DNA from: an uncultured bacterium | Lineage (GTDB): Bacteria; Krumholzibacteriota; Krumholzibacteriia; JACNKJ01 | Assembly (NCBI GenBank): GCA_963695095.1 | Contig: CAVOFT010000001.1 | Coordinates: 736,001 to 800,000 of the forward strand | Direction of reading: 5' to 3' | Length of the DNA stretch: 64,000 nucleotides | In this document: piece after piece, positions 37,894-57,986 of the stretch | Numbering within the stretch: position 1 is the stretch's first letter | Layout: each line of letters begins with the position of its first letter | The notes under the pieces: generated by a model | The model's database searches: none | Told to the model about the DNA's origin: nothing | Seen by the model: the letters and a program-made list of their open reading frames with translations, nothing else | Made by a program: the position numbers and the translations under genes

Positions 37894-38943
37894 CTACTGC
37901 CCCGGCGTGAAGACGAAGGGCGCCCGGAAGCTCACGCGGCCCGCCGGCACGGCGCCGAAGCTCCAGGCCTTCACCTGCGCCAGCACGCAGTCGAGCACGG
38001 CGGCGCTCCTGAGGCCGTCCTCGAGCACGGCGGCCTCGCTGACGCCGCCGTCGGCCTCCACCGTGAGGCGCAGCACCAGCTTGCCGCCGAGCGTGGCGTC
38101 GCGCTTCAGCGCGTTGTCGTAGCAGTAGCGGATGCCCGGCGCGTAGCGCTGCAGCACGGCGAGCAGGGAGGCGTTGCTGCGGATCTCGCCGCCGCCCGGC
38201 GCGCCCCCCGCCCGGGCGCCCGCTGCCCCAGCGCCTTCTGCGCCCTCGCTGCCCGCGCTCCAGTCGCCGATCTCCACGCTGAGCCCGGCCGCCAGCAGCA
38301 CGGGCCCGCCGCCCGCGGGCGCGGCGGCCGCCACGCTGCTCTCGACACTGCCCAGCGCCTCCTGCCCGCGGCCGCGGCGCAGGCGGCCGCGCGCCGCCCC
38401 GGCGGAGGGCGCCGCGGGGGCGTCCCCGGCGGGCAGCGCGGTGGAGAGCTTGGCCAGCGTGGCGTCCAGGGCCTGGGTCGTCGAGGCGAGAGCCTGCGTC
38501 GCCGCCTCGGCCTGGCGGCGTCCGGCCAGGCCCTGATCGGGCGCCACGCGCGGCGCCTGGGCCAGCCGCTCCACCCGCCGCGGCGCGCGCTCGGGCTCGG
38601 GCGCGGGGGTCGGGTCCGGCGGCTGCGGCGCGGCGGCCTCGGCTGCCGGCGCCGCCGCTAGCGGCGAGGCGACCGGCGCGCTCGCGACCGGCACCGGCGG
38701 CTCCGGGCGGCGCTCCTCGAGGATCAGCCGCGCGAGACGCTCGGGCATGGCCTCGAGCGTGGGCGCCTCCTCCACCGGCGCCGGCGCGAAGAGCAGCACC
38801 GCGAGGACGAGGAGGCCCAGCGCGGCGGCCATGGCGAAGGAGCGCCGCGTGCGCGCATCCATCTCGCCGATCAGGATGACGTGCCAGGGCAGCCGATAGC
38901 TGCGCGCGATGGGGCTGAGCGGCCGGCCGAGGGCGAAGGCCAT
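37894..38943 (-). CDS. TonB-like protein with AgmX/PglI-type C-terminal domain (GltG-like)
   Basis: N-terminal TM, PERLARLI, Pro/Ala-rich linker, IRYCYDNALKRDATLGGKLVLRLTV..FRAPFVF. Confidence 0.8.
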   Translation of the reverse strand: MAFALGRPLSPIARSYRLPWHVILIGEMDARTRRSFAMAAALGLLVLAVLLFAPAPVEEAPTLEAMPERLARLILEERRPEPPVPVASAPVASPLAAAPAAEAAAPQPPDPTPAPEPERAPRRVERLAQAPRVAPDQGLAGRRQAEAATQALASTTQALDATLAKLSTALPAGDAPAAPSAGAARGRLRRGRGQEALGSVESSVAAAAPAGGGPVLLAAGLSVEIGDWSAGSEGAEGAGAAGARAGGAPGGGEIRSNASLLAVLQRYAPGIRYCYDNALKRDATLGGKLVLRLTVEADGGVSEAAVLEDGLRSAAVLDCVLAQVKAWSFGAVPAGRVSFRAPFVFTPGQ

Positions 38944-39449
38944 CAGGAGTCCTTGATCACGGCCAGGGCGATGTCGCCGTAGCCGCTCTGGTTGCAGGTG
39001 TACATGACGCGCTGCAGGATGGCGAACTCGATGTCGCGATCGCCCTGGATCGCCACGCGCGGCCGGGCGCTCTCGCCCGTGCGCCGCGCGGCCAGGGCCT
39101 CGCTCTTCGCGCGCTCGGTCTGGAGGCGCTCGCCCAGGCCCGCGATCCAGAGCGACTCGCCCGCCAGACTCGCGCCGACCGAGGCCACCATCTCGTCGCC
39201 GACGAGGATGGCGTCGTCGAAGACCGCCACCACGAGCGCGGGCCGGGCGGCGTCCTGGCTGCGCGACGCGGGCAGATCCACGCCCGGCACGGGGGTCAGC
39301 GCCTCGCCGTCCACCACGAAGCTCTTGAGCAGGAAGAGCAGCAGCGAGGTGAAGATGTCCATCATCGAGGTCATGCGCAGCACGGCCTTGCGGTTCTCCC
39401 GCCGCAGGCGGCTGAAGCCGCCCCGACTGCGCCGCGTCGAAGCCTTCAT
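38943..39449 (-). CDS. ExbD/TolR family protein (AglQ/S-like)
   Basis: MTSMMDIFTSLLLFLLKSF, IQGDRDIEF..RVMYTC..GY. Confidence 0.88.
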   Translation of the reverse strand: MKASTRRSRGGFSRLRRENRKAVLRMTSMMDIFTSLLLFLLKSFVVDGEALTPVPGVDLPASRSQDAARPALVVAVFDDAILVGDEMVASVGASLAGESLWIAGLGERLQTERAKSEALAARRTGESARPRVAIQGDRDIEFAILQRVMYTCNQSGYGDIALAVIKDS

Positions 39450-39910
39450 CGCGAGCCTCCCTCGCCGCTCGCGGCGGCCAGGGCGATCCGGGGCCAGCCG
39501 GCCTCGCGGGCGATGTCCATGGTCGCCACGATGCGCTCGTAGCGCGTGTGCGGCGCCGAGACGATGATGATGTCCTTCTCGGCCGGATGCGTAGCGGCCA
39601 GCTCGCCGAGCAATGCGCCCAGGCGCGCGACGCCGGTCGGGCCATCGTCGCCCGCCGCGGGCGCGAGGCCCCGGCCCGCCAGGCGCCAGCCCCGCTCCTC
39701 CAGGCGCAGGGACAGCTCGAGGCCGGCCTCGTCGGTCGCCGGCGCGCTCGCATCGTCCGCGGGCATCTGCATGTCGATCACGGTCACCTGCAGGAAGACG
39801 GCCGAGATCAGCAGCATCGGGATCAGCGCCACGAAGATGTTCATCAGCGGCAGCATCTCCAGCTCCTCGGCGACGAGCTGCCGGAAGCTGCCGCGCGCGC
39901 GGCGGCCCAT
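39446..39910 (-). CDS. ExbD/TolR family protein (AglQ/S-like)
   Basis: LPLMNIFVALIPMLLISAVF, YERIVATMDIAR. Confidence 0.85.
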   Translation of the reverse strand: MGRRARGSFRQLVAEELEMLPLMNIFVALIPMLLISAVFLQVTVIDMQMPADDASAPATDEAGLELSLRLEERGWRLAGRGLAPAAGDDGPTGVARLGALLGELAATHPAEKDIIIVSAPHTRYERIVATMDIAREAGWPRIALAAASGEGGSR

Positions 39911-39911
39911 G

Positions 39912-40559
39912 CTAGATCTCCTCCGTGCCGCCCGTGAGCAGGCTGATCAGGCGCACGCTGAGTGCGTCCACGTTGTCGACGATGCCCTCCACCTTGCTCA
40001 CCAGGAAGCCGTGGATGAGCAGGGCCGGCACGGCGACGATGAGGCCGAAGGCCGTCGTGTTCAGCGCCTGGCTGATGCCCGCGGCGAGAAAGGCCGAGCG
40101 CTGGGAGGGATCGGCGGCGTCCACGGCGTTGAAGGCGGTGGTCAGGCCGAAGATGGTGCCCAGCAGGCCGAGCAGGGTGGCCGTGTTGGCCAGCATGTTC
40201 AGGTAGGAGAGCCGGCGGCCCAGCGGGGGCAGCACCACGGTGGCGGCGCTGTCGGCCGCCGCCTGCAGGGTCTCTTCGCTCGCCGCGGCCGCGCCCTCGC
40301 GCTGCAGGATGGCCTTGGCAACGCGCGTGACCGGGGACTCCACCTTCTGGCAGAGCGCGACGGCCCCGCCCTTGTCGCCGCGGCGCACCAGGCGCAGCAG
40401 GTCGCGGCTCATCTTCGTGGAGTTGAGCTGGGCCGCGCGCTGGATCACCCAGAGTCGCTCCAGGCTGAGGGCGAAGACCAGCAGGCCGGTGATCAGGATC
40501 ACGATCATGAAGGGGCCGCCGTTCTTGAAGAAGGCGGCGAAGGTGGCGACGGGGTTCAT
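39912..40559 (-). CDS. MotA/TolQ/ExbB proton channel (AglR-like)
   Basis: GGPFM, ANTATLLGLLGTIFGL, GISQALNTTAFGLIVAVP. Confidence 0.93.
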   Translation of the reverse strand: MNPVATFAAFFKNGGPFMIVILITGLLVFALSLERLWVIQRAAQLNSTKMSRDLLRLVRRGDKGGAVALCQKVESPVTRVAKAILQREGAAAASEETLQAAADSAATVVLPPLGRRLSYLNMLANTATLLGLLGTIFGLTTAFNAVDAADPSQRSAFLAAGISQALNTTAFGLIVAVPALLIHGFLVSKVEGIVDNVDALSVRLISLLTGGTEEI

Positions 40560-40562
40560 GCC

Positions 40563-40916
40563 TCACTCCTCGACTACGGGGTTGGGTCCGGGATCCTGCG
40601 CAGCCGGCCGGCTCGTCGGCAGGGCCGCGGCGCGCAGCGCAAGCTGTGGGGGCGGCGCGGGCTCGAGCAGGCCGGCGGCGGCGATGAGTTGCCAGCCCAG
40701 GCGCAGCTCGACGCGGGCCGGCTCGCGGGCGTTGATGAAGAGCACTTCCGGGCCCTTCGCCACGCCCTCGATGGTGATGGCCTCCAGGCTGCGTTCGGCG
40801 CCGCCGGCGGTCGGCTGGGGCTCCGCGGCTGCCGCCGCCCGTTCGGTCGCCGCTGCTGCCGGAGCGAGCGCGAGGGCCAGCAGGAGCGCGATCCGCAGCG
40901 CCTCAGTTCGCATCAT
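40563..40916 (-). CDS. Small secreted protein, GltF/CglF-like
   Basis: Signal peptide; LEAITIEGVAKGPEVLFINAR resembles the I-E-G-x3-P-x3-I motif; position between the TPR gene and ExbB. Confidence 0.55.
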   Translation of the reverse strand: MMRTEALRIALLLALALAPAAAATERAAAAAEPQPTAGGAERSLEAITIEGVAKGPEVLFINAREPARVELRLGWQLIAAAGLLEPAPPPQLALRAAALPTSRPAAQDPGPNPVVEE

Positions 40917-41826
40917 GCTTCGCCTCCGGGTCGGGTGCCGGGGCCGGCGGGCTGAGCGCGAGATGGCCCGCGGCCGGCGCGCCGGCCAGGGCGCGGCCCA
41001 GGGCATCGGGATCCACGCCGCCGCCGGGCGCGAGCCGGCGGTAGGCGAGGAAGTGCGCGCGGGCCGCCGCCTCGTCGAAGCGATAGTTCAGCGCCACGAT
41101 GGCCAGGTTGTAGTGGGCGCCCGCGCAGCGCGGATCGAGGGCGAGGGCGCGCTCGAACTCGGCGGCGGCCGCCTCGGGCCGGCCCGCATAGAGGAGGCCG
41201 ATGCCCAGGTTGTTCGCCGCGGCGGCCGAGCGGGGCGCCGCCTCGGCGGCCGCGCGCAGGTGGGGCTCGGCGGCAAAGGGATTTTCTCCGCGCAGGAGAA
41301 GGAAGCCCAGCGCGGCGGCCGTGCCCGACGCCTCCGGATCCAGTGCGCGGCTCAGGCGGGCCGATTCCTCCAGCTCGCCGAGCGCGTCGAGCTGCAGCGC
41401 GAGGGCGGCCGTCAAGGGGCCTCTGGGCTCGGCGCCGCCAGCCAGCGCCGCGCGCAGCAGCGCGGCCCCTGCGGCGAACTCGCCCGCCGCGTAGTGCAGC
41501 TTCGCCCGCAGGCTCAGCGAGGGAGCGTCGAGGGGATCCGCCGCCAGGGCGGCGTCCAGCGCAGCGCCCGCCGCCGGCAGGGAATCGACGGCCGCCAGCA
41601 GCGCGGCCAGGCGATAGGGCCAGTAGGGCTCCTGGGGCGCCCGGGCCGCCCAGGCGCGCAGCGAGTCCCCCTCGGCCGCGAGCTGCGCGCCGGCGTCTGC
41701 GGGCCGCGTGGCCGGCGCCTGGAGCGCACCGCCTCCCGCGCAGCCGGCCAGGACCGCGACGGCGAGCGGTGCCAGCGCCCGGGGGCGCGCGCAGCGGCTT
41801 GCAATCTGGAGCAGGCGGGACGGCAT
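40903..41826 (-). CDS. TPR lipoprotein (GltE/AglT-like)
   Basis: Lipobox LAGC; ANNLGI, FERALALDP, AHYNLAIV. Confidence 0.75.
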   Translation of the reverse strand: MPSRLLQIASRCARPRALAPLAVAVLAGCAGGGALQAPATRPADAGAQLAAEGDSLRAWAARAPQEPYWPYRLAALLAAVDSLPAAGAALDAALAADPLDAPSLSLRAKLHYAAGEFAAGAALLRAALAGGAEPRGPLTAALALQLDALGELEESARLSRALDPEASGTAAALGFLLLRGENPFAAEPHLRAAAEAAPRSAAAANNLGIGLLYAGRPEAAAAEFERALALDPRCAGAHYNLAIVALNYRFDEAAARAHFLAYRRLAPGGGVDPDALGRALAGAPAAGHLALSPPAPAPDPEAKHDAN

Positions 41827-41906
41827 GGCGCTCCTCGTGCTTTCCCACGCCGCCGGTCGGGGTTGCCGCGGCGCGCTGAAATCACTGCTCGCAAGTCGCA
41901 TACCCA

Positions 41907-44900
41907 TCAAGGACGTAGCGGCGGATCAGAGGCCGCCACCAAGGGGAATTCCAGCTCGGGCAGGTGCAGGAAGCGCCGAGCAATCCGCGGCCACAACTCG
42001 TTTTTGGTGATTGCGACCCAGTTGTCCGGGTCTTCATCCGTGGGATCGGCCAGGCGCACGAGCTCGCTCCAGGTCTGCTCGCCGCGGGCGTGGAGTTCCC
42101 AGGCGCGATCCTCGAGCACCTCGAGATAGGCGAGACGGTCGTCGCCGGCGAGGGCCGCGGGCGCCGGGGCGGCGAGCAGCGCGTCGCCCAGCTCGTAGAG
42201 CGACTGGCCGAGCAGGTGCGCTGCCGCCCGCGACCAGCGCCGACTGCCGCGGGCGAGCACGTGCTGGCTCTGCTCGGCGAGGGCAGCGAGCAGGGCCTGC
42301 TTGCGCTCGAGGCCGGCCTCCAGCGGCGCGGCCAGGGCGACCGCCGCGAAGTCCCGGTGAAGAGCCAGGCAGGCGAGGTAGTCGACGTGGGCGAGCAGGT
42401 CCGCATCGGCGAGAGCGGGCTGCCGGGCGGCGCCGTCGAGATAGGCGGCGAGGGGACCGCCCGCCGCCCGGGCGTCGGCGAGGGGGGCGTCGCCCCGGGC
42501 CGCGAGCGCGGCGAGGGCGCGCGCGTGGAGAATCTCCGTGAGCGCCGCCGGGTGCGCGGGGAAGCGCGCGAGGAACTCGTCGCGATAGCGCTCGGCATCG
42601 GCGGCTCCCGCCGCGCCCGCCGCGAGATCGATGGCATGGAGCAGGGCAGCGGGTGCCTGGGCCAGCTCCTCGGCGCTGCGCGCGCCGGCGGCATAGGCGG
42701 CCAGGGCGGCGGCGGCCCGCCGCGGTGCGACCTTCGCGAAGAGCGCGGCTATCTGCAGCCGGGCATCGCCGGCGAGGCGGCTGTCCGGATGGCCTTCGGC
42801 CAGCGCGGTGAAGGCGCCGGCCGCCGCCTCGCGCTCGCCGCAGGCGGCGAAGCCCAATCCCGCGCGGTAGTGGGCCTCGTCTGCAAGCGCAAAGGCGGGC
42901 CAGGCGGCGGCGAGATCGGCGAAGCGGCGCGCGCCGGCGCAGTCGCTGCTGTCGGCGGCCATGGCCGCTGCGGCGGCGAGGAAGTGGCTCTCGGGCACGC
43001 GCAGGGCGAGGGCCGCGCCGAGGCTGTCGGCGCTCGCGGCGCCCGTGCCGCCCGCCGCACGCGCTGCGAGCGCGAGAGCCTCCTCGTAGCGCGAGGCGGC
43101 CGCGGCGGCCTCGCCCGCGCGGCTCAGGGCGTCTCCGCTGCGGGCGGCGGCCAGGGGGGCGGCCGCGTGGGCGGGCCAGCGCCGGGCGAAGGCCGCGAAG
43201 CCGGCCGCCGCTTCCCGGTGCCGAGCATCGCCGTCGCGCAGGCTGGACAGGCGCCAGAGCAGGGCCGGCGCGCGGGCGTCATTCGGCTGGCGATCGAGAT
43301 AGCGATCGCCGGCGGCGAGGAAGCGCGCGCGGGCGGCGGGGAGGGCATCGCCCGCGGCGGCGCCCTGCAGGGCATCGAGCAGGGCCAGGGCCTGCCAGTC
43401 GGCGAGGGCGGCCAGGTCCGCGTCCTCGGCGGCGCAGGCATAGTGGGCGAGGGCGGCCTCGCCGTCGCCCAGCTGCGCGGCCGCCTCGCCCGCTGCGAGT
43501 TGCCGGCGGGAGCGCTCGGCATCCTCGGGCCAGTGGGCGAGCAGCAGTTCGAGGCTCTCGCGCGCCCGGTGCCAGTCGCCGGCCGCCCCCCGCGCGCGGG
43601 CGCGAGCGAGGGCCTGGCTGGCCCGCTCGATCAGGCAGGCGCGCGCGAAGTCGCCGGCCGCCTGGGCAAGACTGTCCTCGGCCGCGCTGCGCGCTGCCTG
43701 CCAGCCGCTGCCCGGACGGAAGTGCAGAGCGAGCGTGCCCAGCTCGGCATCGACGCGCGTGGAGTCGCCGACGGCCCGGCGGTCGGCGAGCAGCAGCTGC
43801 GCCTGGGCGAGGGTGCCCGGCGCCAGCGGCCAGCGGGCAAGCCAGAGCGAGTCGGCGGCGGCCGCTTCCGCATGGAAAGCGTAGCTGCGCAGCAGGTCCG
43901 CCACATCCGTGAGCAGCGTCGGCGCGTAGGGCCGCTCGCCCTCACCCGCGAAGAAGCCCGCCCAGGCGGGCGCGCCGCCCGCCCGGGCCAGACATTCGGC
44001 GAGATGCGCCCGGGCCTCCCGAGCCAGCGACGCGCCGGCGCCGGCCGCGGCCTCGGCTTCCAGGTCGATGAGTCGGCGATAGAGCGCTGCGGCCTCGAGG
44101 AAGCGATCCTCGCCGTAGCGAAGCCAGCCCAGCGTGTAGAGCGCCACGCGCGTCAGTTCGGGGCTGCCCGTGGCGGCCACGGCGTCGTAGTGCAGGGCCG
44201 CCCGCGCGCGGTCGCCGCGGGCGAGGGCGCGCTCGGCGAGCCGAAGACGCGCCTGCGGCAGTTCGGGTGCCTCCGGGTGCTCGGCCAGCAGCGACTCGAG
44301 CTGGGCCTCGCCCTCGGGATCGCCCTGCTCGTCGAGCAGCATGCCGAGATTGAAGCGCACGGCGCCGCGGCCGGGATAGTCCGCGTCCTCGGCGAGGATG
44401 GCGCGGTAGAGCGCGCAAGCCGGCTCGAGATCCAGGAAGGGCGCCAGGGCGCGCTCGGCGGCGGCGTCGGCCGCGCCCTCCGCGCCGAGGAAGGCGGCCA
44501 TGCGCGCGGCGAAGGCCTCGCGCGCCTCATTCAAGCGCAACTCGGCGAGATGGAAGCGCAGCTCCCCGCGCGCCGTCGACTGCGGGTGGGCGGCGAGGAA
44601 GGCTTCGCAGCGCAGGCGCGCCTCGGCGTGGGCCGCGCTGGCAAGGGCGCCGCCAGCGGGAGTCTCGCTGCGCTGCAGCGCCGCCTCCGCGAGCTGGTAG
44701 TCGAGCAGCTCCTGCTCGGCGTCCAGGCGCTTCAAGCGCTCGGCGATGAGCCAGGCTGCTGCGCGCCCCTTTTGCGCGGCGAGGCGGGCGGCAGCGCTTG
44801 CCGCCTCGGCATGGGCAGCGGCCAGCGCGGCGCTCAGCGCCTCGCCCTGGGGATCGCCGGCGGCCAGGCAAGCGGCCAGCCTCGCCTCGATGTCCAGAGC

Positions 44901-49581: not shown

Positions 49582-50183
49582 GGCGCGCTCCGATCCAGGC
49601 GCAGCGCGAAGCCCGTGGCGAGGATCTCCAGGCTGTCCATGGCGACGGGCGTGACGACCACCGTGTCCGCCATGCCCGCGCGGCGCAGCTCCTCGCCCTG
49701 GCCGAAGAAGAGCAGGAGCCAGAGCGCTTCCGTCGAATCGAGATCCGCGGGCAGGGGCGCCGCGAAGGCGAGCTGGGCATCCATCATCAGGTGATCGAAG
49801 CCGGTGACGGCGCGCGAGGCGCCGGCCACCGGCGTCGTGGCGGCGAGCAGAGCCTGCACGCGGCGGCTGTGCTGGCGCGGCTCATCGTCCGCGCGCAGGG
49901 GATGGGCGGCGAGGAGCGCGGCGTCGCCCCGGCGCAGCTCGATGGCGAGATCGCCCGTGCGGATGGCGCGGAAGGTGATGCGGACATCGACGCTCACCGC
50001 GAGGGTGCCGCTGGGCGCGACGAGGGCGCCGGCCGCCGGCTGGCTCGAGAGCAGGTCCAGACGGGTCCAGGTCTCCTCGACGCCGGGCGCCTCGAGACAG
50101 CCGCCTCCCGCCGCCGCGAGGGCGAGCGGCGGGAGGACGGCCATCGCGAAGCGCGCGCGCCGGAATCTGCCGGGGATGTTCAT
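49578..50183 (-). CDS. Hypothetical lipoprotein
   Basis: Hydrophobic stretch then GGGC; 4-nt overlaps with both neighbours. Confidence 0.6.
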   Translation of the reverse strand: MNIPGRFRRARFAMAVLPPLALAAAGGGCLEAPGVEETWTRLDLLSSQPAAGALVAPSGTLAVSVDVRITFRAIRTGDLAIELRRGDAALLAAHPLRADDEPRQHSRRVQALLAATTPVAGASRAVTGFDHLMMDAQLAFAAPLPADLDSTEALWLLLFFGQGEELRRAGMADTVVVTPVAMDSLEILATGFALRLDRSAP

Positions 50184-51565
50184 TTCAGCAGGAGCAGCTT
50201 GCCCTGCTGCCGGGAATCGCCCTGGCTCAGGCGGCTGAAGTAGACGCCCGAGGGGAGGGCCTCGCCGCGCTCGTCGCGGCCGTCCCAGACCACGGCCTGC
50301 TCGCCCGCCGGGTAGCTGCCCTCGGCGAGCACGCGCAGGAGGCGCCCCTGCAGATCGTGGACCGCGAGGCGCAAGGGCGCGCCGCCGGCCGGCACGCTGA
50401 AGCGCAGGGTCGTGCTGGGATTGAAGGGATTGGGGTGATTGCCCAGCAGCGCGAGCGCGGCCGGAGTCCCGCCCTCGGCGGCCGGATCGCTCTCGCCCTG
50501 ATCGGGGGCGAGCGCGTAGAGGCGCAGGCCGCTGCCCTCGCCCCAGGCCTCGACCACGAGACCCACCGACTCCTGCCGCCGCAACTGGGTGCCCCGGCGA
50601 TGGTCGGTCACGGTCACCGTCGGCACGCAGAAGTCGCGCGGAGCCGCGAGGGCGGCCTCGAGGTCGCCCAGCGGCGCCAGGCTCGGCGAGAACTTGCGCA
50701 GGACGCCGGCCCGGGGCGCGGCGGCGTAGAGGTTGCCCCAGCCGTCGAGGTCCAGGCCCTCGACGCTGCCCAGGCCGTGGGCGAGCGCGCGCTCCCAGCG
50801 CAGGGCCCCGCCCGCTTCGCTGAGCTCGACGATGCGGCCGCCGTGGGCGTCGGCGACGACGACGCGATGCGCGCCGCGCGCCGCGTCCCAGCGGGCGGCG
50901 ATGGCGACGGGCCCGGCGAAGCGGCCCACCCCGCCGCCGAGGGCGCCGAAGCGCTCGCCCAGGGCGAAGCGCCCGTTCTCGACGGCGAAGCTGGCCACGC
51001 GATTGGCGCCCGTCTCCACGACGAAGAGGCGGTCGTCGGCGGCGGCGAAGGGCGTGCCGCCATCGGACCAGGCCAGGTCGCGCGGCGCTTTGAGGCCATC
51101 GATCGCGTAGAGCGGCGTCAGGCTCAGGGTCTCGCTGTCGTAGACGGCCTGGAACACCAGCACGCGACCATTACCGCTGTCAGCCAGGTAGATGCGGCCG
51201 GCGTCGTCGGCGGCCAGGCCGCGGGGCTCGACGAGCGCGCCGAAGGCGCTCCCTTCGCCCGTGAAGGCCGCCAGACCCAGGGTGGGGTCGCCGAAGAGCA
51301 GGCGGTTCCAGACCGGATCGCTCATCACCTGCAGGTAGCGCGCCTCGAGGTAGGGGAAGCGATCGTAGATGTCCACGCGGCCCACGATCACGCCGGCTGC
51401 CACGGCGCCGAAGAGATCGCGGTCCAGCTCCGCGCGGCTGGCGGCGCGGTCGAGCAGGCTGCGCTCGCCCGCGCCCGGCCAGGCCAGCGGGGTGAAGGTG
51501 GCGGCGGCGGCCGTCCCCGCGCAGGCGAGGAGGAGAGCCGCGGTCCCGAGGAAGAGGTGTCGCAT
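50180..51565 (-). CDS. NHL-repeat beta-propeller protein with FlgD-Ig tail
   Basis: PRGLA..IYLADSGNGRV, LFVVETGANRV, FAGPVAIA; NHPNPFNP..WDGRDERG..SGVYF. Confidence 0.82.
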   Translation of the reverse strand: MRHLFLGTAALLLACAGTAAAATFTPLAWPGAGERSLLDRAASRAELDRDLFGAVAAGVIVGRVDIYDRFPYLEARYLQVMSDPVWNRLLFGDPTLGLAAFTGEGSAFGALVEPRGLAADDAGRIYLADSGNGRVLVFQAVYDSETLSLTPLYAIDGLKAPRDLAWSDGGTPFAAADDRLFVVETGANRVASFAVENGRFALGERFGALGGGVGRFAGPVAIAARWDAARGAHRVVVADAHGGRIVELSEAGGALRWERALAHGLGSVEGLDLDGWGNLYAAAPRAGVLRKFSPSLAPLGDLEAALAAPRDFCVPTVTVTDHRRGTQLRRQESVGLVVEAWGEGSGLRLYALAPDQGESDPAAEGGTPAALALLGNHPNPFNPSTTLRFSVPAGGAPLRLAVHDLQGRLLRVLAEGSYPAGEQAVVWDGRDERGEALPSGVYFSRLSQGDSRQQGKLLLLK

Positions 51566-51595: not shown

Positions 51596-52738
51596 CTAGA
51601 AGGTCAAGCTGAGGCCCGTCTCGAAGACGTTGGCCGCGAAGGCGTTGGTGTTGAAGTAGCGCTCGTAGCCCAGGCGCAGGCGCGCCGAGCGCAACAGGCT
51701 GAAGCGGGCGACGAGGGCCTGCGGCGCCCACTCCAGGCGGCCGCCGAACAGGTGCGCGTCGAAGGGGCCGAGCCGGTAGTCGCCGCTGCGATAGCCGCCG
51801 ATGCCCTCGGCGGCGGTGTACTCTTCAGCCCAGAACCAGGCGCTGCCCTGGTGATAGAAGCGATAGCGGTAGCGCACGACGAACTCCCGGCCCAGGTACT
51901 GATTGAGCTTGAGCCCCAGGGTGTGGGAGTCGAGCTGCCAGTCGTCCTGGTAGTAGCGGTACTCGACGTTCAGGCTCGAGCGTTCGCCGAGGTAGCGGTT
52001 GAGCTTGAGGAAGACATCCTCCCGCCGCCGCGAGTCGGGGTGCATCTCGGGCAAGCGCTCGCCACCCGCGTAGACCGCGCGGTAGAGGTTGTGCTGGAGC
52101 CCGCCATGCCGATTCAGCTCCAGACCCACGCGCAGCACCGTCTTCGGGTCGAGCACGCGCGTCGCCACCACGTTGAAGTGCGTGACGTCCTTCTCATCCG
52201 CCGCCGCCGCGTCCTCGTCGGCGAGCGGCTCGATGGTGTCCCAGCCATAGCTGAGGCCCACCGACAGATTGAGCTGGTCGCCGAAGAGGTCGCGACTCGT
52301 GCCGGCCGACACCATGCTGGCATCGTAGTCCGACTCGATGGAGCGGTAGTAGCCGAGTGCAGCCGGTCCCAGGGCGAGGCTTGCCTGCATGGCATTGCGG
52401 ATCTTCGTGTACTCGCTGAAGGCATCGCCGGCGCCGGCGATGGGCCGGCTGGCGGCGGTGATGGCGTCGGCCGCCTCGACGCTGCCGGCCGGCGACGGCA
52501 CGGGGGGAATGCTCACGCGCTCGTGGTCGAACTCCACATTCAGTCGACTGCGGCCGAGCGATAGGCCGTAGGAGACGTAGTGCGAGCGCACCTGGACGCC
52601 CTCCACATCGGTGAAGTAGTGGTAGAGCGCGCCGGCCTCCTGCTCGCCGGGCTCCGGCCAGGCCAGGGCCGGCGCCGCGACCGCGCCCAGCAGGGCGGCA
52701 AGGATGGCGCGCGGCCAGATCCGATGCCGGGGGATCAC
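51596..52738 (-). CDS. DUF3570 family outer-membrane protein
   Basis: DAITAAS, SIESDY, PEMHPDSR, YRYYQDDW..SHT, YRFYHQ, DYRL; C-terminal F; GTG start overlapping the DUF4266 stop. Confidence 0.8.
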   Translation of the reverse strand: MIPRHRIWPRAILAALLGAVAAPALAWPEPGEQEAGALYHYFTDVEGVQVRSHYVSYGLSLGRSRLNVEFDHERVSIPPVPSPAGSVEAADAITAASRPIAGAGDAFSEYTKIRNAMQASLALGPAALGYYRSIESDYDASMVSAGTSRDLFGDQLNLSVGLSYGWDTIEPLADEDAAAADEKDVTHFNVVATRVLDPKTVLRVGLELNRHGGLQHNLYRAVYAGGERLPEMHPDSRRREDVFLKLNRYLGERSSLNVEYRYYQDDWQLDSHTLGLKLNQYLGREFVVRYRYRFYHQGSAWFWAEEYTAAEGIGGYRSGDYRLGPFDAHLFGGRLEWAPQALVARFSLLRSARLRLGYERYFNTNAFAANVFETGLSLTF

Positions 52739-52968
52739 TTGCACGCGCAGCCTCCCCCGGCGCCGCCGGCGCCGCCCGTCGAGGCCTCGCGGGCTTCCAG
52801 CCACTTCAGTTCCTTGGCCTCCTCGTCGCCTTCGGCGGCGAAGTCCATGATCGGGTCGGCCAGGTACTCGCGCTCATAGGGCCGCGCGCCGGCGCAGCCG
52901 CCGGCAGCGATGACGAGCGCGAGCAGGAGCGTGGCCAGCGGCGCGCGGCAGGACGGCGGGATACGCAT
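52735..52968 (-). CDS. DUF4266 family small lipoprotein
   Basis: AGGC lipobox, PYEREYLADPIM, REASTGG..GGGCACK. Confidence 0.85.
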   Translation of the reverse strand: MRIPPSCRAPLATLLLALVIAAGGCAGARPYEREYLADPIMDFAAEGDEEAKELKWLEAREASTGGAGGAGGGCACK

Positions 52969-53516
52969 CAGCGACTCCCCATGGCAGCGGTTGTGGGTGG
53001 AGCGGCGGCTGCCGCGAGCAACTCGGCGATGCTCGCCTCCAGGCGCTCCAGGCCGCGGGCGTCGGAGCCCAGCACGGCGAGACGCCGGGCGCCCTCGCCG
53101 TCGAAGACGAAGCTGCAGGGCAAGGCCGGGAGGTCGAGCTGCTTGGCCAGTCCATCGGGGCCGTCCAGGTAGAGCGGCATCGTCAGCCCGAGGTCGGCGG
53201 CGAATTGTCGCGCCTTCTCCGGATCACGATCGATGGAGACGACCCGCAGCTCGAGGCCGGCTGCCTGCCAGCGGGCCGCGCGGGCATCCAGCCAGGGCAG
53301 CTCGCGGCGACACGGCACGCACCAGCTCGCCCAGAAGTGGAGGAGCAGGGGCCGGCCTGGCAAGGGCGTGATGGTCGCGGCGCCGGTCTCCGCGAGGGCC
53401 GCCAGCGGGCGCGCGGCCAGGGCCTGCCGGGCGGGGTCGGGGTCGGCGGCTGCACGGCCGACCGGCGCCGCGAGCCCAGCCGCCAGGAGAATCGTCAAGA
53501 CCAGTGGTCCTCGCAT
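52968..53516 (-). CDS. TlpA/ResA-like thioredoxin (disulfide reductase)
   Basis: LLHFWASWCVPCRRELP, LPCSFVFD; signal peptide. Confidence 0.88.
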   Translation of the reverse strand: MRGPLVLTILLAAGLAAPVGRAAADPDPARQALAARPLAALAETGAATITPLPGRPLLLHFWASWCVPCRRELPWLDARAARWQAAGLELRVVSIDRDPEKARQFAADLGLTMPLYLDGPDGLAKQLDLPALPCSFVFDGEGARRLAVLGSDARGLERLEASIAELLAAAAAPPTTAAMGSR

Positions 53517-53524
53517 GTCTGCTC

Positions 53525-55501
53525 CTAGCGGTACTGGGCGCCGAGCATCACCCAGAGGCGGAAGAGTTCGCGTTCGCGATCGGTGAGGGCGTTCGCACCG
53601 TCCGGATGGCGGCCGCTGCCCTCCCGGTTGCCGAGGCCCTCGGTGGCGTCGATGAGCAGCGAGCGGCGTGGGAAGCCCGGCCTCACCACCTGCGTCTCGA
53701 GGTGTTCGGAATCGCCGGAGAGATTGGTGTAGCCGCGCGGGAAGATCGCTCCCGTCTCTAGCGTGTCGGGCGCCGCGCCGAGGTCCAGGCCCGCCGGCGC
53801 CGGCAGGGTGTCGCCTTCCGCGATGACCGTCACGTGGTGGCAGGAAAGGCACTTGGCGTCGACGATGGGCGCGATGTGGTCCACGTAATTGATGACCTCG
53901 AAGTCCACCGGGTCCAGGTTCAGATTCGTGGCGGGGAGCGCGTCGGCCATCGGGAAGGGGTTGGTGGGCGGATCCGTGACCCGCTCGCGGTCCGTGTGGC
54001 AGCCCGTGCACTGGTTGACGTTCTCGCCGGGGCGCACGTAGAGCCAGGTGCGCTTGACGACGAAGCCGCGACCGTGCTCGTCGAGAGTGGCGAAGGAGAT
54101 CGGCGTATCGGCAGGCACCTCGATCTTGAAAGAGCCATCCGCCTGGACAGGCGCATAGCCGAGGAAGGCCCGCTTCTCGAACTCATTGGCCGAGAAATCG
54201 TTCATCTCGCCGGCCAAGGTGGGCCGCGCGGTGAAGACGGCGACCTGCGGCACCGGCGTCTCGCCGCGCACTGGGACTTCCTGGTCGTCCTGCAGGCTGC
54301 GGTTGAAGACGTCATGCGCGAGGAAGGTGCCGGAGTCGTAGGCGCGATTCACGGTGTCCGGGATGACGAGCGGCTTCTCGCGCGGCCACAGGAGCTGGGC
54401 GTCGTACTCGTTCGCCGCGGGATCGTTGTAGAGGAAGCTCAGCTCGTCAAGGCTCAGCGTCGCCGGATCATCCGGCGTGCCCGCGCCGCTCTGGTTGATC
54501 GTGAAGGTGTAGAGGCCGTAGTCAACCTGATCGTCCTCGGCGGCAGGCAGGGTGTAGCTGGCGACGTAGCGGTTGCCGCCGAGCGGGAAGGGGTACTTGA
54601 AGGCGCCGTAGGTCCAGGGCGCGCCATCCGTGTTGACGTCGGGGGTGAGCACGTCCCAGTAGTCGCTGTCCGGGCCGGGCGCCGGATCGGCGGGCCCGTT
54701 CTCGAGCTTGATGACGACGATGGGCCCGGCATCCTCGTTCACCATCGTGCTCTCGACGGCGATCAGGCGCCCGTCCGGCGTCGGCTGGGCGTGGAAGAAG
54801 TTGCGGTCATGGGGGCCGTACATGTGAAAGGTGCCCGTGCCGTCGGGATTGGTGAAGAAGAGCGGAAAGCGGTTGAAGTTGCCGAAGTGCTCCCAGCGCG
54901 TGTACATGATGTGGCCGTCCGCGAGCACGGTCGGGTCGAAGTCGTCGCTCTGGTTGAAGCTGATGCGTTCCAGGTTGCCGCCGTCGGCGTCGCAGGCGTA
55001 GAGGTGCTCGGCTGGCGAGTGGTTGTACTCGTCCATTTCGCCGGCGCGGCTGCTCGTGAAGACGATGCGGCCGTCGGGCAGGTAGAGCGGGTCGAAGTCG
55101 TGGCCGCCGCCCGCGGTCACGCGGCGCAGGCCGGCGCCATCGGCGCCGATCTCCCAGATGTTGCGGCTGGACTCGCCCGGCGCTCGCATCGAAAACAGGA
55201 TGCGCTCGCCGTCCCAGCTCACGCAGGGGTCGCTGATGCTGGCCCCGTTGAAGCTGGTGATGGCCGTCACCCGGCCGTCCGGCGCGATGGGCTGGAGCTT
55301 GTAGAGGTTGCCGCCGCCCCAGCTGCGATTGAGCGTTTCCTCGGCGCTGGTCTTGAGGAAGACGAGGGCGGGCGTCGCCGCGTCGCCGATGATGGCATCC
55401 GCGGGGGCGTCCTCGCGGCAGCCGGTCGCCGCGGCCAGCAGCGCCAGCGGCAGGAGCGCCGGCCAGCGGCGCCAGCGAGAGGGTGTGAGCGTGGCAGGCA
55501 T
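53525..55501 (-). CDS. TolB/PD40-propeller lipoprotein with HZS-alpha-like domain and two CxxCH haem motifs
   Basis: Lipobox ATGC; DPCVSWDG, DFDPLYLPDGRIVFTSSR, YTRWEH, DGSF..VPADTP..VRPGE..CTGCH; CLSCH. Confidence 0.8.
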   Translation of the reverse strand: MPATLTPSRWRRWPALLPLALLAAATGCREDAPADAIIGDAATPALVFLKTSAEETLNRSWGGGNLYKLQPIAPDGRVTAITSFNGASISDPCVSWDGERILFSMRAPGESSRNIWEIGADGAGLRRVTAGGGHDFDPLYLPDGRIVFTSSRAGEMDEYNHSPAEHLYACDADGGNLERISFNQSDDFDPTVLADGHIMYTRWEHFGNFNRFPLFFTNPDGTGTFHMYGPHDRNFFHAQPTPDGRLIAVESTMVNEDAGPIVVIKLENGPADPAPGPDSDYWDVLTPDVNTDGAPWTYGAFKYPFPLGGNRYVASYTLPAAEDDQVDYGLYTFTINQSGAGTPDDPATLSLDELSFLYNDPAANEYDAQLLWPREKPLVIPDTVNRAYDSGTFLAHDVFNRSLQDDQEVPVRGETPVPQVAVFTARPTLAGEMNDFSANEFEKRAFLGYAPVQADGSFKIEVPADTPISFATLDEHGRGFVVKRTWLYVRPGENVNQCTGCHTDRERVTDPPTNPFPMADALPATNLNLDPVDFEVINYVDHIAPIVDAKCLSCHHVTVIAEGDTLPAPAGLDLGAAPDTLETGAIFPRGYTNLSGDSEHLETQVVRPGFPRRSLLIDATEGLGNREGSGRHPDGANALTDRERELFRLWVMLGAQYR

Positions 55502-55545: not shown

Positions 55546-56163
55546 TCAACGCGCCAGGCTGCGGTAGAAGATGAAGCCGGCGCTGTAGTCGGCGTAGTCG
55601 TAGACGAGCGTGCCGCCGGCCGTGGGATGCAGCACGCGCCGTCCGCGGGCATCGAGGCGCAGGGCGAGGTCGTCACGCAGGAAGAGCTCGAGTCCGCCGC
55701 CCGCGCTGAGCACGTTGCGGGTGACGGAGTCCGCCAGCAGGGCGCCGCCGGGGAAGGCGATCATCATGCCGTAGCTCGCGGTGAGGTAGGGCTGCAGGCG
55801 CCAGGGCAGGGGCCGGCGGAGCAGCAGGCCGAAGTCGTGGAAGAGCGCATGCACGGACGAGGCCGGGTTGTGGGCGACCGTGGCCTCGTAGGCCAGCCAG
55901 CTGCGCGGCGCGTAGGCGGCGCGCAGCAGGTACTGACGCTGGCCGCCCAGCTCGCCGGCGCCGATGCTGAAGCCGAAGCGCCGCTGGTAGGGGCGATCGC
56001 CGGGCGCGAGGGCCAGCCGGCCCTGGGCCAGCGCGGGAACGAGGTACTCGACCTCCGCCCTGCCAGCGGCGGCCGGCGCCGCGGCTGCGCCGAGCGGCGC
56101 GCCGGCGAGGGCGGCGGCCCCGAGCAGCCCGGCGAGGGCGCGCCTGCTGCTGAGCGCGGCCAT
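55546..56163 (-). CDS. Small outer-membrane beta-barrel protein
   Basis: Signal peptide; LQPYLTASYG, SAGGGLELF..LRLDAR, YSAGFIFY. Confidence 0.7.
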   Translation of the reverse strand: MAALSSRRALAGLLGAAALAGAPLGAAAAPAAAGRAEVEYLVPALAQGRLALAPGDRPYQRRFGFSIGAGELGGQRQYLLRAAYAPRSWLAYEATVAHNPASSVHALFHDFGLLLRRPLPWRLQPYLTASYGMMIAFPGGALLADSVTRNVLSAGGGLELFLRDDLALRLDARGRRVLHPTAGGTLVYDYADYSAGFIFYRSLAR

Positions 56164-56639
56164 CACTGCCACGCTCCGGCGAGAATCCAGTCGCGGATGG
56201 CGATGAAGCCGGGATCGTCGCTGCTGTCGAAGCCCGCGAGGCTTTCGCCGGCGTGGTCGAGGCCGCCCGCCTCCTGGCTGAGGGGCTTGAGCAGCAGCGG
56301 GCTGGCCAGGGGGTCCCAGCCGTAGACCTGCAGGGCGGCCTGTTCGAAATCGAAGCCGGGGTCGGGATCCTCGGGGGGCGAGAGCTCGAAGCTGCCCCGC
56401 GGGCCGCCGCCGTGGCAGAGCGCGTTGTTGCAGCCCTCGGCCACGAGGACTGGCCTCACTTCGGCGGCGAAGCGGACCGCATCGAGGACGAAGAGGGAGT
56501 CGCCGCCGGGCGGCGCGGGCGCAGCGGCCGGCCCACGGCAGGCGCTGACGGCGAGGGCCATCAACAAGAGCGCGAGCGCGGCCGGCTTCGGCTCGCGGCC
56601 GGCGGCAACCCCTGTCCGTCGACTTCCCTTCGCCTCCAC
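56163..56639 (-). CDS. Putative c-type cytochrome lipoprotein with CX4CH motif
   Basis: Lipobox VSAC; VRPVL..GCNNALCHGG, SPLLLKPL..HAG, IRDWI; AAGGAG RBS before GTG. Confidence 0.7.
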   Translation of the reverse strand: MEAKGSRRTGVAAGREPKPAALALLLMALAVSACRGPAAAPAPPGGDSLFVLDAVRFAAEVRPVLVAEGCNNALCHGGGPRGSFELSPPEDPDPGFDFEQAALQVYGWDPLASPLLLKPLSQEAGGLDHAGESLAGFDSSDDPGFIAIRDWILAGAWQ

Positions 56640-56767
56640 GCTGACTCCTTCCGGGCCGACCTCGTGCAGAGTGCCGGCGCCTGGCTAGCTCGGGCGCGCC
56701 GTCCGCGAGCGCCCGGATCCCCGGGCATTTCCCATCGCGGCTCGCCCCTTGGGTCGGGCCGGGAGAC

Positions 56768-56784
56768 AGCAATGCCTGCGCCAA
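56768..56784 (-). promoter_or_regulatory. sigma54 (-24/-12) promoter
   Basis: TTGGCGC-AGGCA-TTGCT matches TGGCAC-N5-TTGC(A/T), about 130 nt upstream of the first operon gene. Confidence 0.7.
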
Positions 56785-56894
56785 ACCGGAAGGAATAGCT
56801 AAATAGAGGATTTCGGATGCGAAACAGCCGGTATCATGGGACCGTGCACGGGAAGATGAAGCCAATTGGGGACGGGGGGACAGCGGAGCCTGGG

Positions 56895-57986
56895 CTAGAA
56901 GTGCTGCACGCGGTAGCGTCGAGACAGGGCGGGATCGAGGGTGAAGGCGCCGGCGAGGGTCTCCTCCACCCAGATGAGGTCGGGTCCTGCCGCGTCGGGG
57001 CGGCGTTCGACGAGGATGACGTCCATGTCCAGGCGCGCCCGGGCGAGCCGGCGCGCCGCCGTCGGGCCGAGCACGGTGAGGGCCGTCGCCCAGGCATCGG
57101 CGAGCGTGGCGCTGTCCATGACGACGGTCACCGAGGCCAGGGAATCCACGGGCCAGCCGCTGCGGGGGTCGAGGATGTGCCCGTAGCGCCTGCCCCCGGC
57201 GGCGACGAACTGCTCGTAGTCGCCGCTGGTGGCCACGGCGGCACGCGGCAGGGTGAGTGTGCCGAGGGTATGCTCGCGGTCGGCCGGATCGCGCAGGCCG
57301 AGCCGCCAGGCGGCGCGCCCGGGCGGCGCGCCGAGGAGGGCGATGTTGCCGGACAGGTCGACGAGCGCGTCCTGCACGCCCAGCGCGACCAGCGAGTCGC
57401 GAGCGCAGTCGACGGCATGGCCCTTGGCAATGCCGCCGAGATCCAGGCGCAGGCCGGGGCGCAGGGCGCTGAGCCGGTCGGCGGCGGGCGGACAGCGCAG
57501 CTTGCGGAAACCGATGTCGGGCAACAGCGCGGCGATGGCCGCGGAGTCCGGCAGCTGCCTGGCGCCGCCGAGGAAGCCCCAGAGGCGGACCAGCGGCTCC
57601 ACGGTGGGATCGAAGGCGCCCGCGCTCTCCGCCGCGACCTGCAGGGCTGCAGCGAGGACGCGCGCGGTCTCCGGCTCAGGCGCGAGCGGCGCGCCGTCCA
57701 CCGTGCCGTCGAGGGCGGCGTTGATGCGCGCCACTTCGCTGGTGCCGGTCCAGTTGCTCATCAGCGAGTCCACGCGGGTGAAGCCGGCCAGGACGCGGGT
57801 GGCCAGAGGCGCGAGCGCGAGGGAATCCGCACCGACGAGCGTCAGCGTGACCGTCGTGCCCATGGTGCGCGTGGTGAAGCGAATCGGCCGGACGGCGGGC
57901 GCGGCAAGGCTTCCGTCCGGCAGCGCCGCCGCGGCGACGAGGAAGACGATCATGAAGGCGATGGGCAGGCGGCGTCGCGGCGACAT
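56895..57986 (-). CDS. apbE: FAD:protein FMN transferase
   Basis: TMGT, SEVARIN, GAFDPTVEPL..LWG, LDLGGIAKG, ATSGDYE, HILDPRSG, ADAWATA. Confidence 0.93.
   Translation of the reverse strand: MSPRRRLPIAFMIVFLVAAAALPDGSLAAPAVRPIRFTTRTMGTTVTLTLVGADSLALAPLATRVLAGFTRVDSLMSNWTGTSEVARINAALDGTVDGAPLAPEPETARVLAAALQVAAESAGAFDPTVEPLVRLWGFLGGARQLPDSAAIAALLPDIGFRKLRCPPAADRLSALRPGLRLDLGGIAKGHAVDCARDSLVALGVQDALVDLSGNIALLGAPPGRAAWRLGLRDPADREHTLGTLTLPRAAVATSGDYEQFVAAGGRRYGHILDPRSGWPVDSLASVTVVMDSATLADAWATALTVLGPTAARRLARARLDMDVILVERRPDAAGPDLIWVEETLAGAFTLDPALSRRYRVQHF

Follow-up and report, generated by a model that had tools for sequence, protein, structure and literature searches.

In a 64,000-nucleotide (nt) window of DNA from an uncultured bacterium of the phylum Krumholzibacteriota (G000:C1:736001-800000, from a 3.64-Mb genome in two contigs), the minus strand carries, from 57986 to 37894, an unbroken chain formed by apbE and 19 further genes. 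We lean towards the view that this operon encodes one conserved envelope system of two uncultured phyla of the Fibrobacteres-Chlorobi-Bacteroidetes (FCB) type (Krumholzibacteriota/Latescibacteria and Eisenbacteria), in which an older redox module was fused with a Glt/Nfs-type core and a dedicated ApbE in a single operon, and which would work in the manner proposed below. The redox module consists of an HzsA-like lipoprotein, a C-x(4-5)-CH lipoprotein, a TlpA-like reductase, DUF4266, DUF3570, an SH3 barrel and an NHL protein with a type IX tail. The core complex is made up of an ExbB/TolQ-like channel, two unlike ExbD/TolR-like proteins, a GltG-type TonB-like protein, a giant tetratricopeptide repeat (TPR) protein and a TPR lipoprotein. 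The composite is real and strongly conserved; novelty lies in the combination and in the diverged barrel, the parts being of known kinds, and its function is read from these parts. In order of transcription, the genes are as follows (aa, amino acids).

56895..57986, minus strand: ApbE flavin transferase, exported, 363 aa, first gene (PF02424, 6.4e-79)
56163..56639, minus strand: lipoprotein, 158 aa, with an invariant C-x(4-5)-C-H-G-G-G-x-R-G and a second invariant His, H129 (alignment of 50 orthologues)
55546..56163, minus strand: small secreted protein, 205 aa, presumed small outer-membrane barrel (sub-threshold TIGR04565, 16.9 bits)
53525..55501, minus strand: HzsA-like di-haem beta-propeller lipoprotein, 658 aa (HZS_alpha 1.4e-17, and PD40)
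52968..53516, minus strand: TlpA/ResA-like periplasmic thiol:disulfide oxidoreductase, 182 aa (AhpC-TSA/Redoxin/Thioredoxin_8; ResA and TlpA models under cut-off)
52735..52968, minus strand: DUF4266 lipoprotein, 77 aa, Gly-rich tail ending C-A-C (PF14086, 1.2e-13)
51596..52804, minus strand: diverged DUF3570 outer-membrane barrel, 402 aa as called, start uncertain (PF12094, 3e-38, 132 bits)
50180..51565, minus strand: NHL-repeat protein with a FlgD_ig-type C-terminal domain, 461 aa (NHL 2e-9, FlgD_ig 6e-8)
49578..50183, minus strand: lipoprotein, 201 aa, no family (invariant lipobox Cys; in 72 of 80 loci)
48811..49581, minus strand: secreted protein, 256 aa, presumed outer-membrane barrel (OMP_b-brl 0.008, under cut-off; tblastn matches in 75 of 80 loci)
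47877..48803, minus strand: SH3 domain and OMP_myx_plus-type outer-membrane barrel, 308 aa (SH3_3 2e-7, OMP_b-brl 3e-6)
47295..47867, minus strand: secreted protein, 190 aa, weakly PepSY-like (window copy without match; PepSY in 7 of 25 orthologues, best E 0.0025)
46525..47292, minus strand: secreted protein, 255 aa, no family (in 73 of 80 loci)
41907..46523, minus strand: giant secreted Ala-rich TPR protein, 1538 aa, in the GltD position (TIGR02795, YbgF-like, over residues 1216-1327 as the only family match)
40903..41826, minus strand: TPR lipoprotein, 307 aa, in the GltE position (TPR families, lipobox)
40563..40916, minus strand: small secreted protein, 117 aa, in the GltF position (no family match; tblastn in 8 of 80 loci only)
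39912..40559, minus strand: ExbB/TolQ-like proton channel, 215 aa (PF01618, 8e-25)
39446..39910, minus strand: ExbD/TolR-like protein 1, 154 aa, Asn at the canonical membrane Asp (PF02472, 7.6e-15)
38943..39449, minus strand: ExbD/TolR-like protein 2, 168 aa, Asp kept (PF02472, 8e-13)
37894..38943, minus strand: TonB-like protein, 349 aa as called, with a single membrane helix, a linker rich in Ala and Pro, and a C-terminal domain of the GltG/AgmX type (NF033768)

Domain assignments were made by Pfam and NCBIfam searches of the operon proteins, and the initial annotation of 19 co-oriented genes with an upstream apbE was borne out for all 20 genes and their domains. Seventeen of the 19 junctions overlap or leave gaps of at most 44 nt; the other two are the 255 nt between apbE and the C-x(4-5)-CH gene and the up to 80 nt between the genes for the giant TPR protein and the TPR lipoprotein, the start of the latter being uncertain. 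We found no credible terminator in the operon interior, where two weak hairpins lie within the coding region, against 3.3 expected from shuffled sequences. An internal promoter may be present, and the 255-nt gap after apbE is the sole candidate site; scans for sigma-70 promoters returned nothing, the sigma-70 consensus being uninformative for such an organism. By eye, a signal peptide or lipobox opens every non-motor product.

The two parts are found together and lost together

In a first sample, comprising 41 genomes of the class, whole genomes were searched separately for DUF3570 and for the GltG-type tail. A window-like DUF3570 was present in 14 genomes, and the same 14 encoded a tail scoring over the cut-off, which was found in none of the other 27. 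A second, evenly drawn sample of 151 genomes of the window's phylum was searched with a profile of the operon-type barrel: 32 genomes held both markers, one only the operon-type DUF3570 (a genome 83% complete), two only the tail, and 116 neither. These are related and not independent genomes, and the counts measure consistency and are not statistics. In 16 of the double carriers the two markers lie on the same contig and strand, 12-15.3 kb apart; in 15 they are on separate contigs of fragmented assemblies, and in one, G033, they are 2.1 Mb apart.

The two tail-only genomes are a truncation and a deletion. In G077 the contig starts inside exbB. In G086, which is 96% complete, apbE residues 33-87 abut tonB residues 212-347 and about 19 kb are lost, a scar which implies that the operon interior was deleted as one block. 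This scar lies in locus L108 (G086:C8:229500-249499) at about 873-1429.

A species-level scan gave the same picture. Using an alignment of the SH3 barrel as query and one genome per species, we obtained 95 relatives and kept 80, whose records bear the titles Krumholzibacteriota, Latescibacteria or Eisenbacteria, apart from a few under other, unverified labels. The set was picked by a middle gene of the operon and shows the companions of the SH3 barrel. Every one of the 80 loci is collinear with the 20-gene order as far as its contig extends. DUF3570 and the haem propeller were present in all 60 loci with at least 5.5 kb upstream, a homologue of the giant TPR protein in all 52 with at least 4 kb downstream of the SH3 barrel, and both halves, in a single gene order, in all 45 with both flanks. 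ExbB and two ExbD genes are kept in fixed order in 34 of the 40 loci with enough flank. When the window proteins were searched by tblastn, the full order from apbE to tonB was recovered in six genomes, which belong to three families, with identities of 35-85%. The position of apbE varies: in family-f3 genomes it follows tonB on the opposite strand.

The proposal that the operon is one unit is thus upheld by co-occurrence and co-localisation of the halves (32 of 35 marker carriers; 45 of 45 loci) and by their joint loss in G086. Three outcomes had been named in advance as speaking against it, namely rare co-occurrence of the halves, a promoter or terminator separating them, and grouping of the TPR/TonB genes with ordinary Tol-Pal/Ton systems, and none of these was found.

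An older redox module outside the operon

In a metagenome scan with an alignment of three out-group DUF3570 sequences, 296 relatives were recovered, 80 were kept and 36 loci of at least 7 kb were mapped. Thirteen of these are canonical cassettes of the tlpA-DUF4266-DUF3570-apbE type (T-D-A). Seven others, from a lineage of about 51-55% GC, carry the SH3 barrel, DUF3570, NHL, HzsA-like, TlpA and DUF4266 genes in a different order, and in their flanks of about 6-10 kb there was no match to apbE, TPR, ExbB, ExbD or TonB. One of them, L116, was delimited by Pfam as an eight-gene module flanked by unrelated housekeeping genes. In L116 the DUF3570 frame (9623-11113, 496 aa) and the NHL protein (11103-13550, 815 aa) both exceed the lengths of their counterparts in the window.

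Because the sister-lineage loci carry this set without motor or apbE, the gene content identifies an outer-membrane redox module, with the SH3 barrel and the NHL protein among its members, as the older unit, to which the window's lineage appears to have fused the Glt-type core and apbE. The initial annotation had drawn the line between its "redox half" and "motor half" elsewhere; that division was misplaced, as the SH3 barrel and the NHL protein go with the redox module.

The NHL protein is probably a cargo of type IX secretion, because its FlgD_ig tail (33 bits, cut-off 27; TIGR04183 20.8 bits, cut-off 23) is common to 148 matches in a genome in which SprA is present. The FlgD_ig-type domain is apparently the general type IX sorting signal of this genome. 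The other strand encodes a further FlgD_ig protein, of 602 aa, immediately past the downstream end of the operon (35104-36912, plus strand).

The SH3 barrel of the window scores 53.4 bits against TIGR04565 OMP_myx_plus (cut-off 60), and ten of ten members of its family match this model, the best at 1.3e-19. We presume that GltA and GltB are members of the same model. We considered the middle-block barrels as equivalents of GltA and GltB for the motor and rejected this, as the SH3 barrel accompanies the redox module where no motor adjoins.

A diverged DUF3570 barrel is the candidate flavin acceptor

The operon contains the same four families as the ApbE-DUF3570-thioredoxin-like-DUF4266 clusters described as "DsbD systems" (Meheust et al. 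2021, PMC8238504), whose DUF3570 cassette is presented there as a proven ApbE substrate system. Relatives of the window's bacterium carry a compact canonical tlpA-DUF4266-DUF3570-apbE cassette elsewhere in the genome, and its tlpA-DUF4266-DUF3570 order matches the operon. In the 41 genomes of the class, DUF3570 proteins fall into two score classes, window-like (116-159 bits) and canonical (284-434 bits), and some genomes hold both; given the canonical cassette elsewhere, the DUF3570 of the operon is a diverged paralogue. The C-x-C end of DUF4266 and an ApbE-type site in DUF3570 are also shared with the published systems. In contrast, the redoxin of the operon matches PF00578, PF08534 and PF13905 and not the published PF13899 (PMC8238504), apbE stands at the 5' end or, on the opposite strand, at the far end, no DsbD gene lies beside the operon, and its DUF3570 is always accompanied by the HzsA-like haem protein, the NHL protein and the SH3 barrel. 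The published survey is described as spanning five genes on each side (PMC8238504), and so the motor lay out of its view. In a literature search of limited coverage, we found no paper joining Agl/Glt with ApbE/DUF3570. The flavinylation-type cluster recognised in the initial annotation therefore stands for the gene families, with the qualification that its DUF3570 is diverged and lacks the strict published motifs.

Two [S/T]GA[S/T] motifs are reported for DUF3570 (PMC8238504), where the operon proteins have D-A-I-T-[T/A/S]-A-S. The relaxed form of this site, D-A-[IV]-[ST]-[TSAG]-A-S followed by R-P, is present in 65 of 65 operon DUF3570s and reads D-A-I-T-A-A-S in the window copy (residues 113-119); among the operon proteins, a conserved motif of this sort is confined to DUF3570. 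At the homologous site the nearest out-group DUF3570s, taken from the best 150 of 2702 representative relatives, read D-x-x-[ST]-G-A-S-R-P, and nine of ten sister-lineage loci read D-G-[IV]-[ST]-G-A-S-[KR]-P. According to a review, a model substrate with a G-to-A change keeps about 50% flavinylation (PMC12052999). The genome holds two ApbE genes, of which the non-operon one adjoins its own FMN_bind gene, and we therefore count the operon ApbE as dedicated. From the relaxed site in all 65 proteins, the strict ApbE motif at this site in relatives, the tolerance of the G-to-A change and the second ApbE with its own FMN_bind partner, we infer that the operon DUF3570 is flavinylated at Ser119, the last residue of D-A-I-T-A-A-S.

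The second ApbE lies outside the window, at G000:C1:2672767-2673577 and 2674490-2674729, beside the FMN_bind gene. Its matches fall in two adjacent frames, which suggests a possible frameshift or assembly error.

The thiol proteins are equally invariant, with W..CxxC in 42 of 42 TlpA-like orthologues and a C-terminal CxC in 32 of 32 DUF4266 orthologues (G-G-G-C-A-C-K at the end of the window copy). On the supply side, DsbD_TM and cytochrome c assembly genes are present elsewhere in the genome.

An AlphaFold2 (AF2) model of DUF3570 is an all-beta barrel (pLDDT, the predicted score of the local distance difference test, 80.7; predicted template modelling score, pTM, 0.75), with OccK, OmpG and BcsC barrels as top Foldseek matches. 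Its first strand begins at residue 52, directly after the signal peptide and without an N-terminal plug or extension, and D-A-I-T-A-A-S lies in the long loop joining strands 3 and 4. The predicted complex of DUF3570 with DUF4266 scored 0.65, compared with 0.01 for the best of three controls; 116 of 157 solved complexes and 2 of 215 mismatched pairs attained the mark used for this score, counts which apply only approximately here as the prediction was run on our own alignments. The model runs share at least 49% of their contacts, with a partner pLDDT of at least 54. In the modelled contacts, alternate lumen-facing residues of the DUF3570 strands, many of them invariant, meet DUF4266 residues 35-69. 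The model supports rather than shows binding and suggests that DUF4266 plugs the DUF3570 barrel, an arrangement that is new here.

In working principle only, such an arrangement would resemble the MtrCAB porin-cytochrome conduits and the lipoprotein-plugged LptDE barrels, in that a redox or lipid-anchored protein is modelled inside a barrel; it would open a way through the outer membrane for electrons or a tethered group. The barrel fold is generic and there is no further relationship of sequence or fold, and the carrier here would be flavin and thiols rather than a deca-haem chain. We know of no proton motor for Mtr. If real, the placement of DUF4266 in the barrel would also account for a possible transfer of electrons across the outer membrane by DUF3570 proteins at large.

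Haem-motif lipoproteins

Two CxxCH motifs are conserved in 57 of 57 orthologues of the HzsA-like protein. It is collinear with hydrazine synthase alpha (5c2v_A, E 1e-20), with a propeller, an HZS_alpha middle domain carrying the first CxxCH and a C-terminal domain carrying the second. It differs in being a lipoprotein and in scoring 102.7 bits against NF052339, where the equivalog cut-off is 800; no HzsB or HzsC partner was found among the Pfam/NCBIfam matches of the operon, and nothing hints at anammox chemistry. In a plasmid collection, the HzsA-like query matched only unrelated SUMF1-fused or PD40 proteins, and the DUF3570 and TonB-like queries had no match.

We regard the C-x(4-5)-CH lipoprotein as a candidate atypical mono-haem protein on the strength of its invariant motif. 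Its description as a "CX4CH" lipoprotein was right about the motif and wrong about the spacing, which is C-x(4 or 5)-C-H-G-G-G-x-R-G across orthologues. No Pfam match (25 members searched), NCBIfam match or Foldseek match was obtained, and its AF2 model is helical (pLDDT 80). The adjacent small barrel candidate of 205 aa keeps its position in 57 loci.

A Glt-type core outside gliding bacteria

The core complex found in non-gliding bacteria is described as aglR, aglQ, aglS, gltD, gltE, gltG and gltC with one extra gene (Luciano et al. 2011, PMC3169522). Like that Glt/Nfs core as described there, the operon combines in one unit a TolQ/ExbB-like protein, two TolR/ExbD-like proteins, a TonB-like protein with an AgmX/PglI tail, a giant periplasmic TPR protein and a TPR lipoprotein (PMC3169522), and neither system has an assigned function. 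The operon differs in having two TPR proteins only, with no GltC-like third, and in adding 13 exported redox or outer-membrane genes; the window's phyla fall outside the survey as set out in that account (PMC3169522).

NCBIfam detects no homology to GltD, GltE or GltF. The 1538-aa TPR protein matches neither a Pfam family nor the GltD model, although its size, export signal, TPR content and position fit GltD. The TPR lipoprotein scores 28.4 bits against the GltE model NF033758 (cut-off 225), with only generic TPR repeats covered. The gene annotated as "GltF-like" did not justify that name, having no family match and tblastn matches in only 8 of 80 loci. The resemblance to the Agl-Glt core that had been put forward is hence confined to ExbB, the two ExbD proteins and the GltG-type tail in one operon; GltC is absent, and homology to GltD, GltE and GltF cannot be demonstrated.

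The TonB-like tail scores 72.7 bits against NF033768 (AgmX/PglI; cut-off 40) and is the genome's only copy over the cut-off, whereas it reaches 18.9 bits against TIGR01352, the ordinary TonB C-terminal model (cut-off 27.1). Against the GltG model it scores 51 bits, compared with a cut-off of 650, and the C-terminus alone aligns. The protein has no Pfam match at E <=0.01 and no cytoplasmic FHA domain. By contrast, GltG of the Myxococcus Agl-Glt gliding machine is described with cytoplasmic FHA domains (PMC3169522, PMC11761067), and only the C-terminus of the 349-aa operon protein matches GltG or GltJ. No homologue of GltC, GltH, GltI, GltJ or GltK was found among the operon proteins by Pfam/NCBIfam.

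The ExbB-like protein has TolQ as its best NCBIfam model, at 60 bits and under the equivalog cut-off, and is one of eight MotA/ExbB paralogues encoded by the genome. Asn takes the place of the membrane Asp in 33 of 35 ExbD1 orthologues, while all 33 ExbD2 orthologues have the Asp; AglQ and AglS, by contrast, are both stated to keep it (PMC9389320). The unlike ExbD pair implies an asymmetric axle with a single protonatable site.

With Ton and Tol-Pal the operon shares the ExbB/TolQ-type channel, the ExbD/TolR-type subunits, a one-helix arm with a Pro/Ala-rich linker and a TonB-like C-terminal fold. It differs in having two unlike ExbD genes and a tail that passes the AgmX/PglI model and misses the TonB C-terminal cut-off, which supports the earlier separation of this protein from ordinary Ton systems, and in lacking Pal, TolB and a TonB-dependent receptor, the PD40 stretch being part of the haem protein. 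The reported absence of a classical receptor was confirmed, as Pfam found no Plug and no TonB_dep_Rec domain in the operon proteins.

The motor and TPR part of the operon (38001-50000) has a G+C content of 74-79%, compared with about 67-72% over most of the window, in part because the TPR proteins are Ala-rich.

Proposed working of the system and alternatives

Our scheme takes flavinylation, haem binding, the path and direction of the electrons, the substrate and the role of the motor as inferred. In it, ApbE would attach flavin mononucleotide (FMN) to the Ser of the D-A-I-T-x-A-S loop in the DUF3570 barrel, the lumen of which the DUF4266 lipoprotein would occupy. Electrons would pass from cytoplasmic thioredoxin to a DsbD/CcdA protein encoded elsewhere, then to TlpA, to the C-x-C tail of DUF4266 and to the barrel flavin, whose partners at the outer membrane, as acceptors or donors, would be the haem lipoproteins and the secreted NHL protein. 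The proton-driven core would reach the outer membrane by its TonB-like arm and TPR scaffolds and would gate, position or assemble the redox complex. That the motor energises transport or export, and that the chemistry takes place "at the surface", as first proposed, are likewise suppositions drawn from gene content.

A further step, which we put forward tentatively and as doubtful, is that a non-gliding Glt-type core is the proton-driven energiser of a trans-outer-membrane redox conduit built from a flavinylated barrel, a thiol-lipoprotein plug, haem lipoproteins and a secreted propeller. Were this true, the operon would represent a new class of motor-coupled extracellular redox machine, and the gliding and spore-coat machines of Myxococcus would be later re-uses of the motor. 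Since 2011 the core behind Myxococcus gliding has lacked an assigned role in other bacteria, as has the flavinylated DUF3570 system a function since 2021, and non-anammox HzsA-like proteins are orphans. The occurrence of all three in one operon across two phyla gives each of them defined partners, offers the testable idea of a proton motor serving an outer-membrane electron-transfer complex and hints at the role of the motor core in non-gliders.

Several observations weigh against the view of a single, flavin-carrying and motor-driven system. The strict [S/T]GA[S/T] motif occurs in 6 of 65 operon-type DUF3570 orthologues and is absent from the window copy, and the T/A/S variant of the site is a candidate acceptor; the C-x-C tail and the flavin loop both lie outside the confident contacts of the DUF3570/DUF4266 model. 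Haem binding by the variable-spacing motif is putative: the fold of the C-x(4-5)-CH lipoprotein matches c-type cytochromes only weakly, at noise level (best FoxE, Z 4.2, root-mean-square deviation 3.5, 79 residues aligned), and hhalign found no similarity to the haem domain of the HzsA-like protein. The co-occurrence counts come from kin. Among ten genomes of the second phylum, nine have the tail and five have DUF3570, and four have the tail without DUF3570. One of these ten, G041, has as its second tail a bare core without redox genes, ordered TPR-x-lipoprotein-TPR-x-ExbB-ExbD-ExbD-TonB (locus L105), and the sister-lineage redox modules stand without a motor. In G033, assembled in one contig, the break in the system falls after the gene for the 190-aa secreted protein and before that for the giant TPR protein (L017 and L018, at 1.24 Mb and 3.39 Mb of G033:C1), which shows that physical linkage is dispensable. 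ExbB and ExbD are absent from 6 of 40 loci, leaving TPR-TPR-TonB, and G013 and G018 encode no orthologous ExbB elsewhere in the genome (best 33-34% identity). The claim of one motor machine, made at the outset, therefore agrees with the fixed order in 34 of 40 clusters and sits uneasily with the stator-less six, the bare cores and the stand-alone redox modules.

One alternative is that the core is a tether rather than an engine, the TonB-like protein and the two TPR proteins serving only to tie the outer-membrane redox complex to the inner membrane or cell wall, as anchor or scaffold, or to aid its assembly, with a chemistry that needs no proton flow. The six clusters with TPR-TPR-TonB alone, G013 and G018, the ExbD paralogue that lost its membrane Asp and the sister-lineage module without an adjacent motor all fit such a role. 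We nevertheless judge it unlikely, given that ExbB and two ExbD genes stand in fixed order in the other 34 clusters and that the Asp of ExbD2 is invariant. TonB-like proteins without their own stator can borrow another by Ton/Tol cross-talk, and the eight MotA/ExbB paralogues of the genome might serve them. The redox module and the Glt-type core might instead be two systems, side by side through shared ancestry or regulation and uncoupled. Each is indeed found alone, as canonical cassette, bare core or stand-alone redox module, and in G033 they are 2.1 Mb apart. However, two phyla share an unaltered gene order at protein identities of 35-65%, both markers are present in 32 of the 35 genomes that carry at least one (the exceptions being the 83%-complete genome, the contig edge and the deletion scar), the junctions are tight and free of internal terminators, and in G033 apbE stayed with the motor part, after tonB on the opposite strand, and not with DUF3570. 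We consider independence of the two quite improbable.

We see only a slim chance that the operon encodes an adhesion or gliding device, in which a type-IX-secreted NHL adhesin, shown by the barrels, is moved by the Glt-type motor like CglB in Myxococcus and merely matured by the redox proteins. The core resembles Agl-Glt, the SH3 barrel matches the myxobacterial OMP_myx_plus model, the C-terminal domain of the NHL protein is shared with some 148 other matches in an SprA-bearing genome, and outer-membrane Glt barrels are reported to present the adhesin in Myxococcus (PMC11761067). Yet the TonB-like protein has no FHA or other cytoplasmic domain for a cytoskeletal track, searches of the operon turned up no homologue of GltC, H, I, J or K, the NHL, DUF3570 and HzsA-like proteins stay together where no motor adjoins, and the core was judged insufficient for motility by Luciano et al., as stated in their survey (PMC3169522). 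Energised reductive metal uptake, with the flavin barrel as an outer-membrane reductase of Fe(III) or Cu(II) and the TonB-like motor powering passage in place of a TonB-dependent receptor, is in our estimation very unlikely too. TlpA-type proteins serve the maturation of copper and haem proteins, and with no Plug/TonB_dep_Rec gene in the operon the TonB-like arm needs another target. A VIT1 iron transporter is listed for 25 published DUF3570 clusters (PMC8238504). Against uptake, Pfam/NCBIfam searches and the annotation of the flanks revealed no metal transporter, metallochaperone or siderophore gene within or beside the operon, the DUF3570 barrel has no N-terminal plug or extension, and its lumen is modelled as filled by DUF4266.

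Other products and surrounding genes

Some of the products listed above belong to no named family. The 201-aa lipoprotein has no Pfam or NCBIfam family, and the 255-aa secreted protein has no credible Pfam match and no PDB relative, and retrieved only unnamed clusters from the Atlas. For the presumed barrel of 256 aa, tblastn gave no match in family-f3 genomes. The bare core L105 (G041:C6:301500-321499), which is a typical bare version of the Glt/Nfs core, includes a 614-aa TPR gene, where the operon has two TPR proteins only. Upstream of it are encoded an extracytoplasmic function (ECF) sigma factor and a CarboxypepD_reg/Plug/VWA/YfbK_C protein of 1049 aa, and a ClpB-like AAA gene intervenes on the opposite strand.

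The flanks of the operon are unrelated to it, with a queuosine-precursor transporter downstream and a divergent LonB/LonC-like protease upstream. The divergent region of 113 nt that separates apbE from the LonB/LonC-like gene contains, shortly ahead of the start of the latter, a strong G+C-rich hairpin of 11 pairs followed by a T run (58052-58077, plus strand). Past the Lon-like gene lie ordinary genes, among them one for rubrerythrin (61157-61654, plus strand) and one for a family-4 glycosyltransferase (61651-62898, minus strand).

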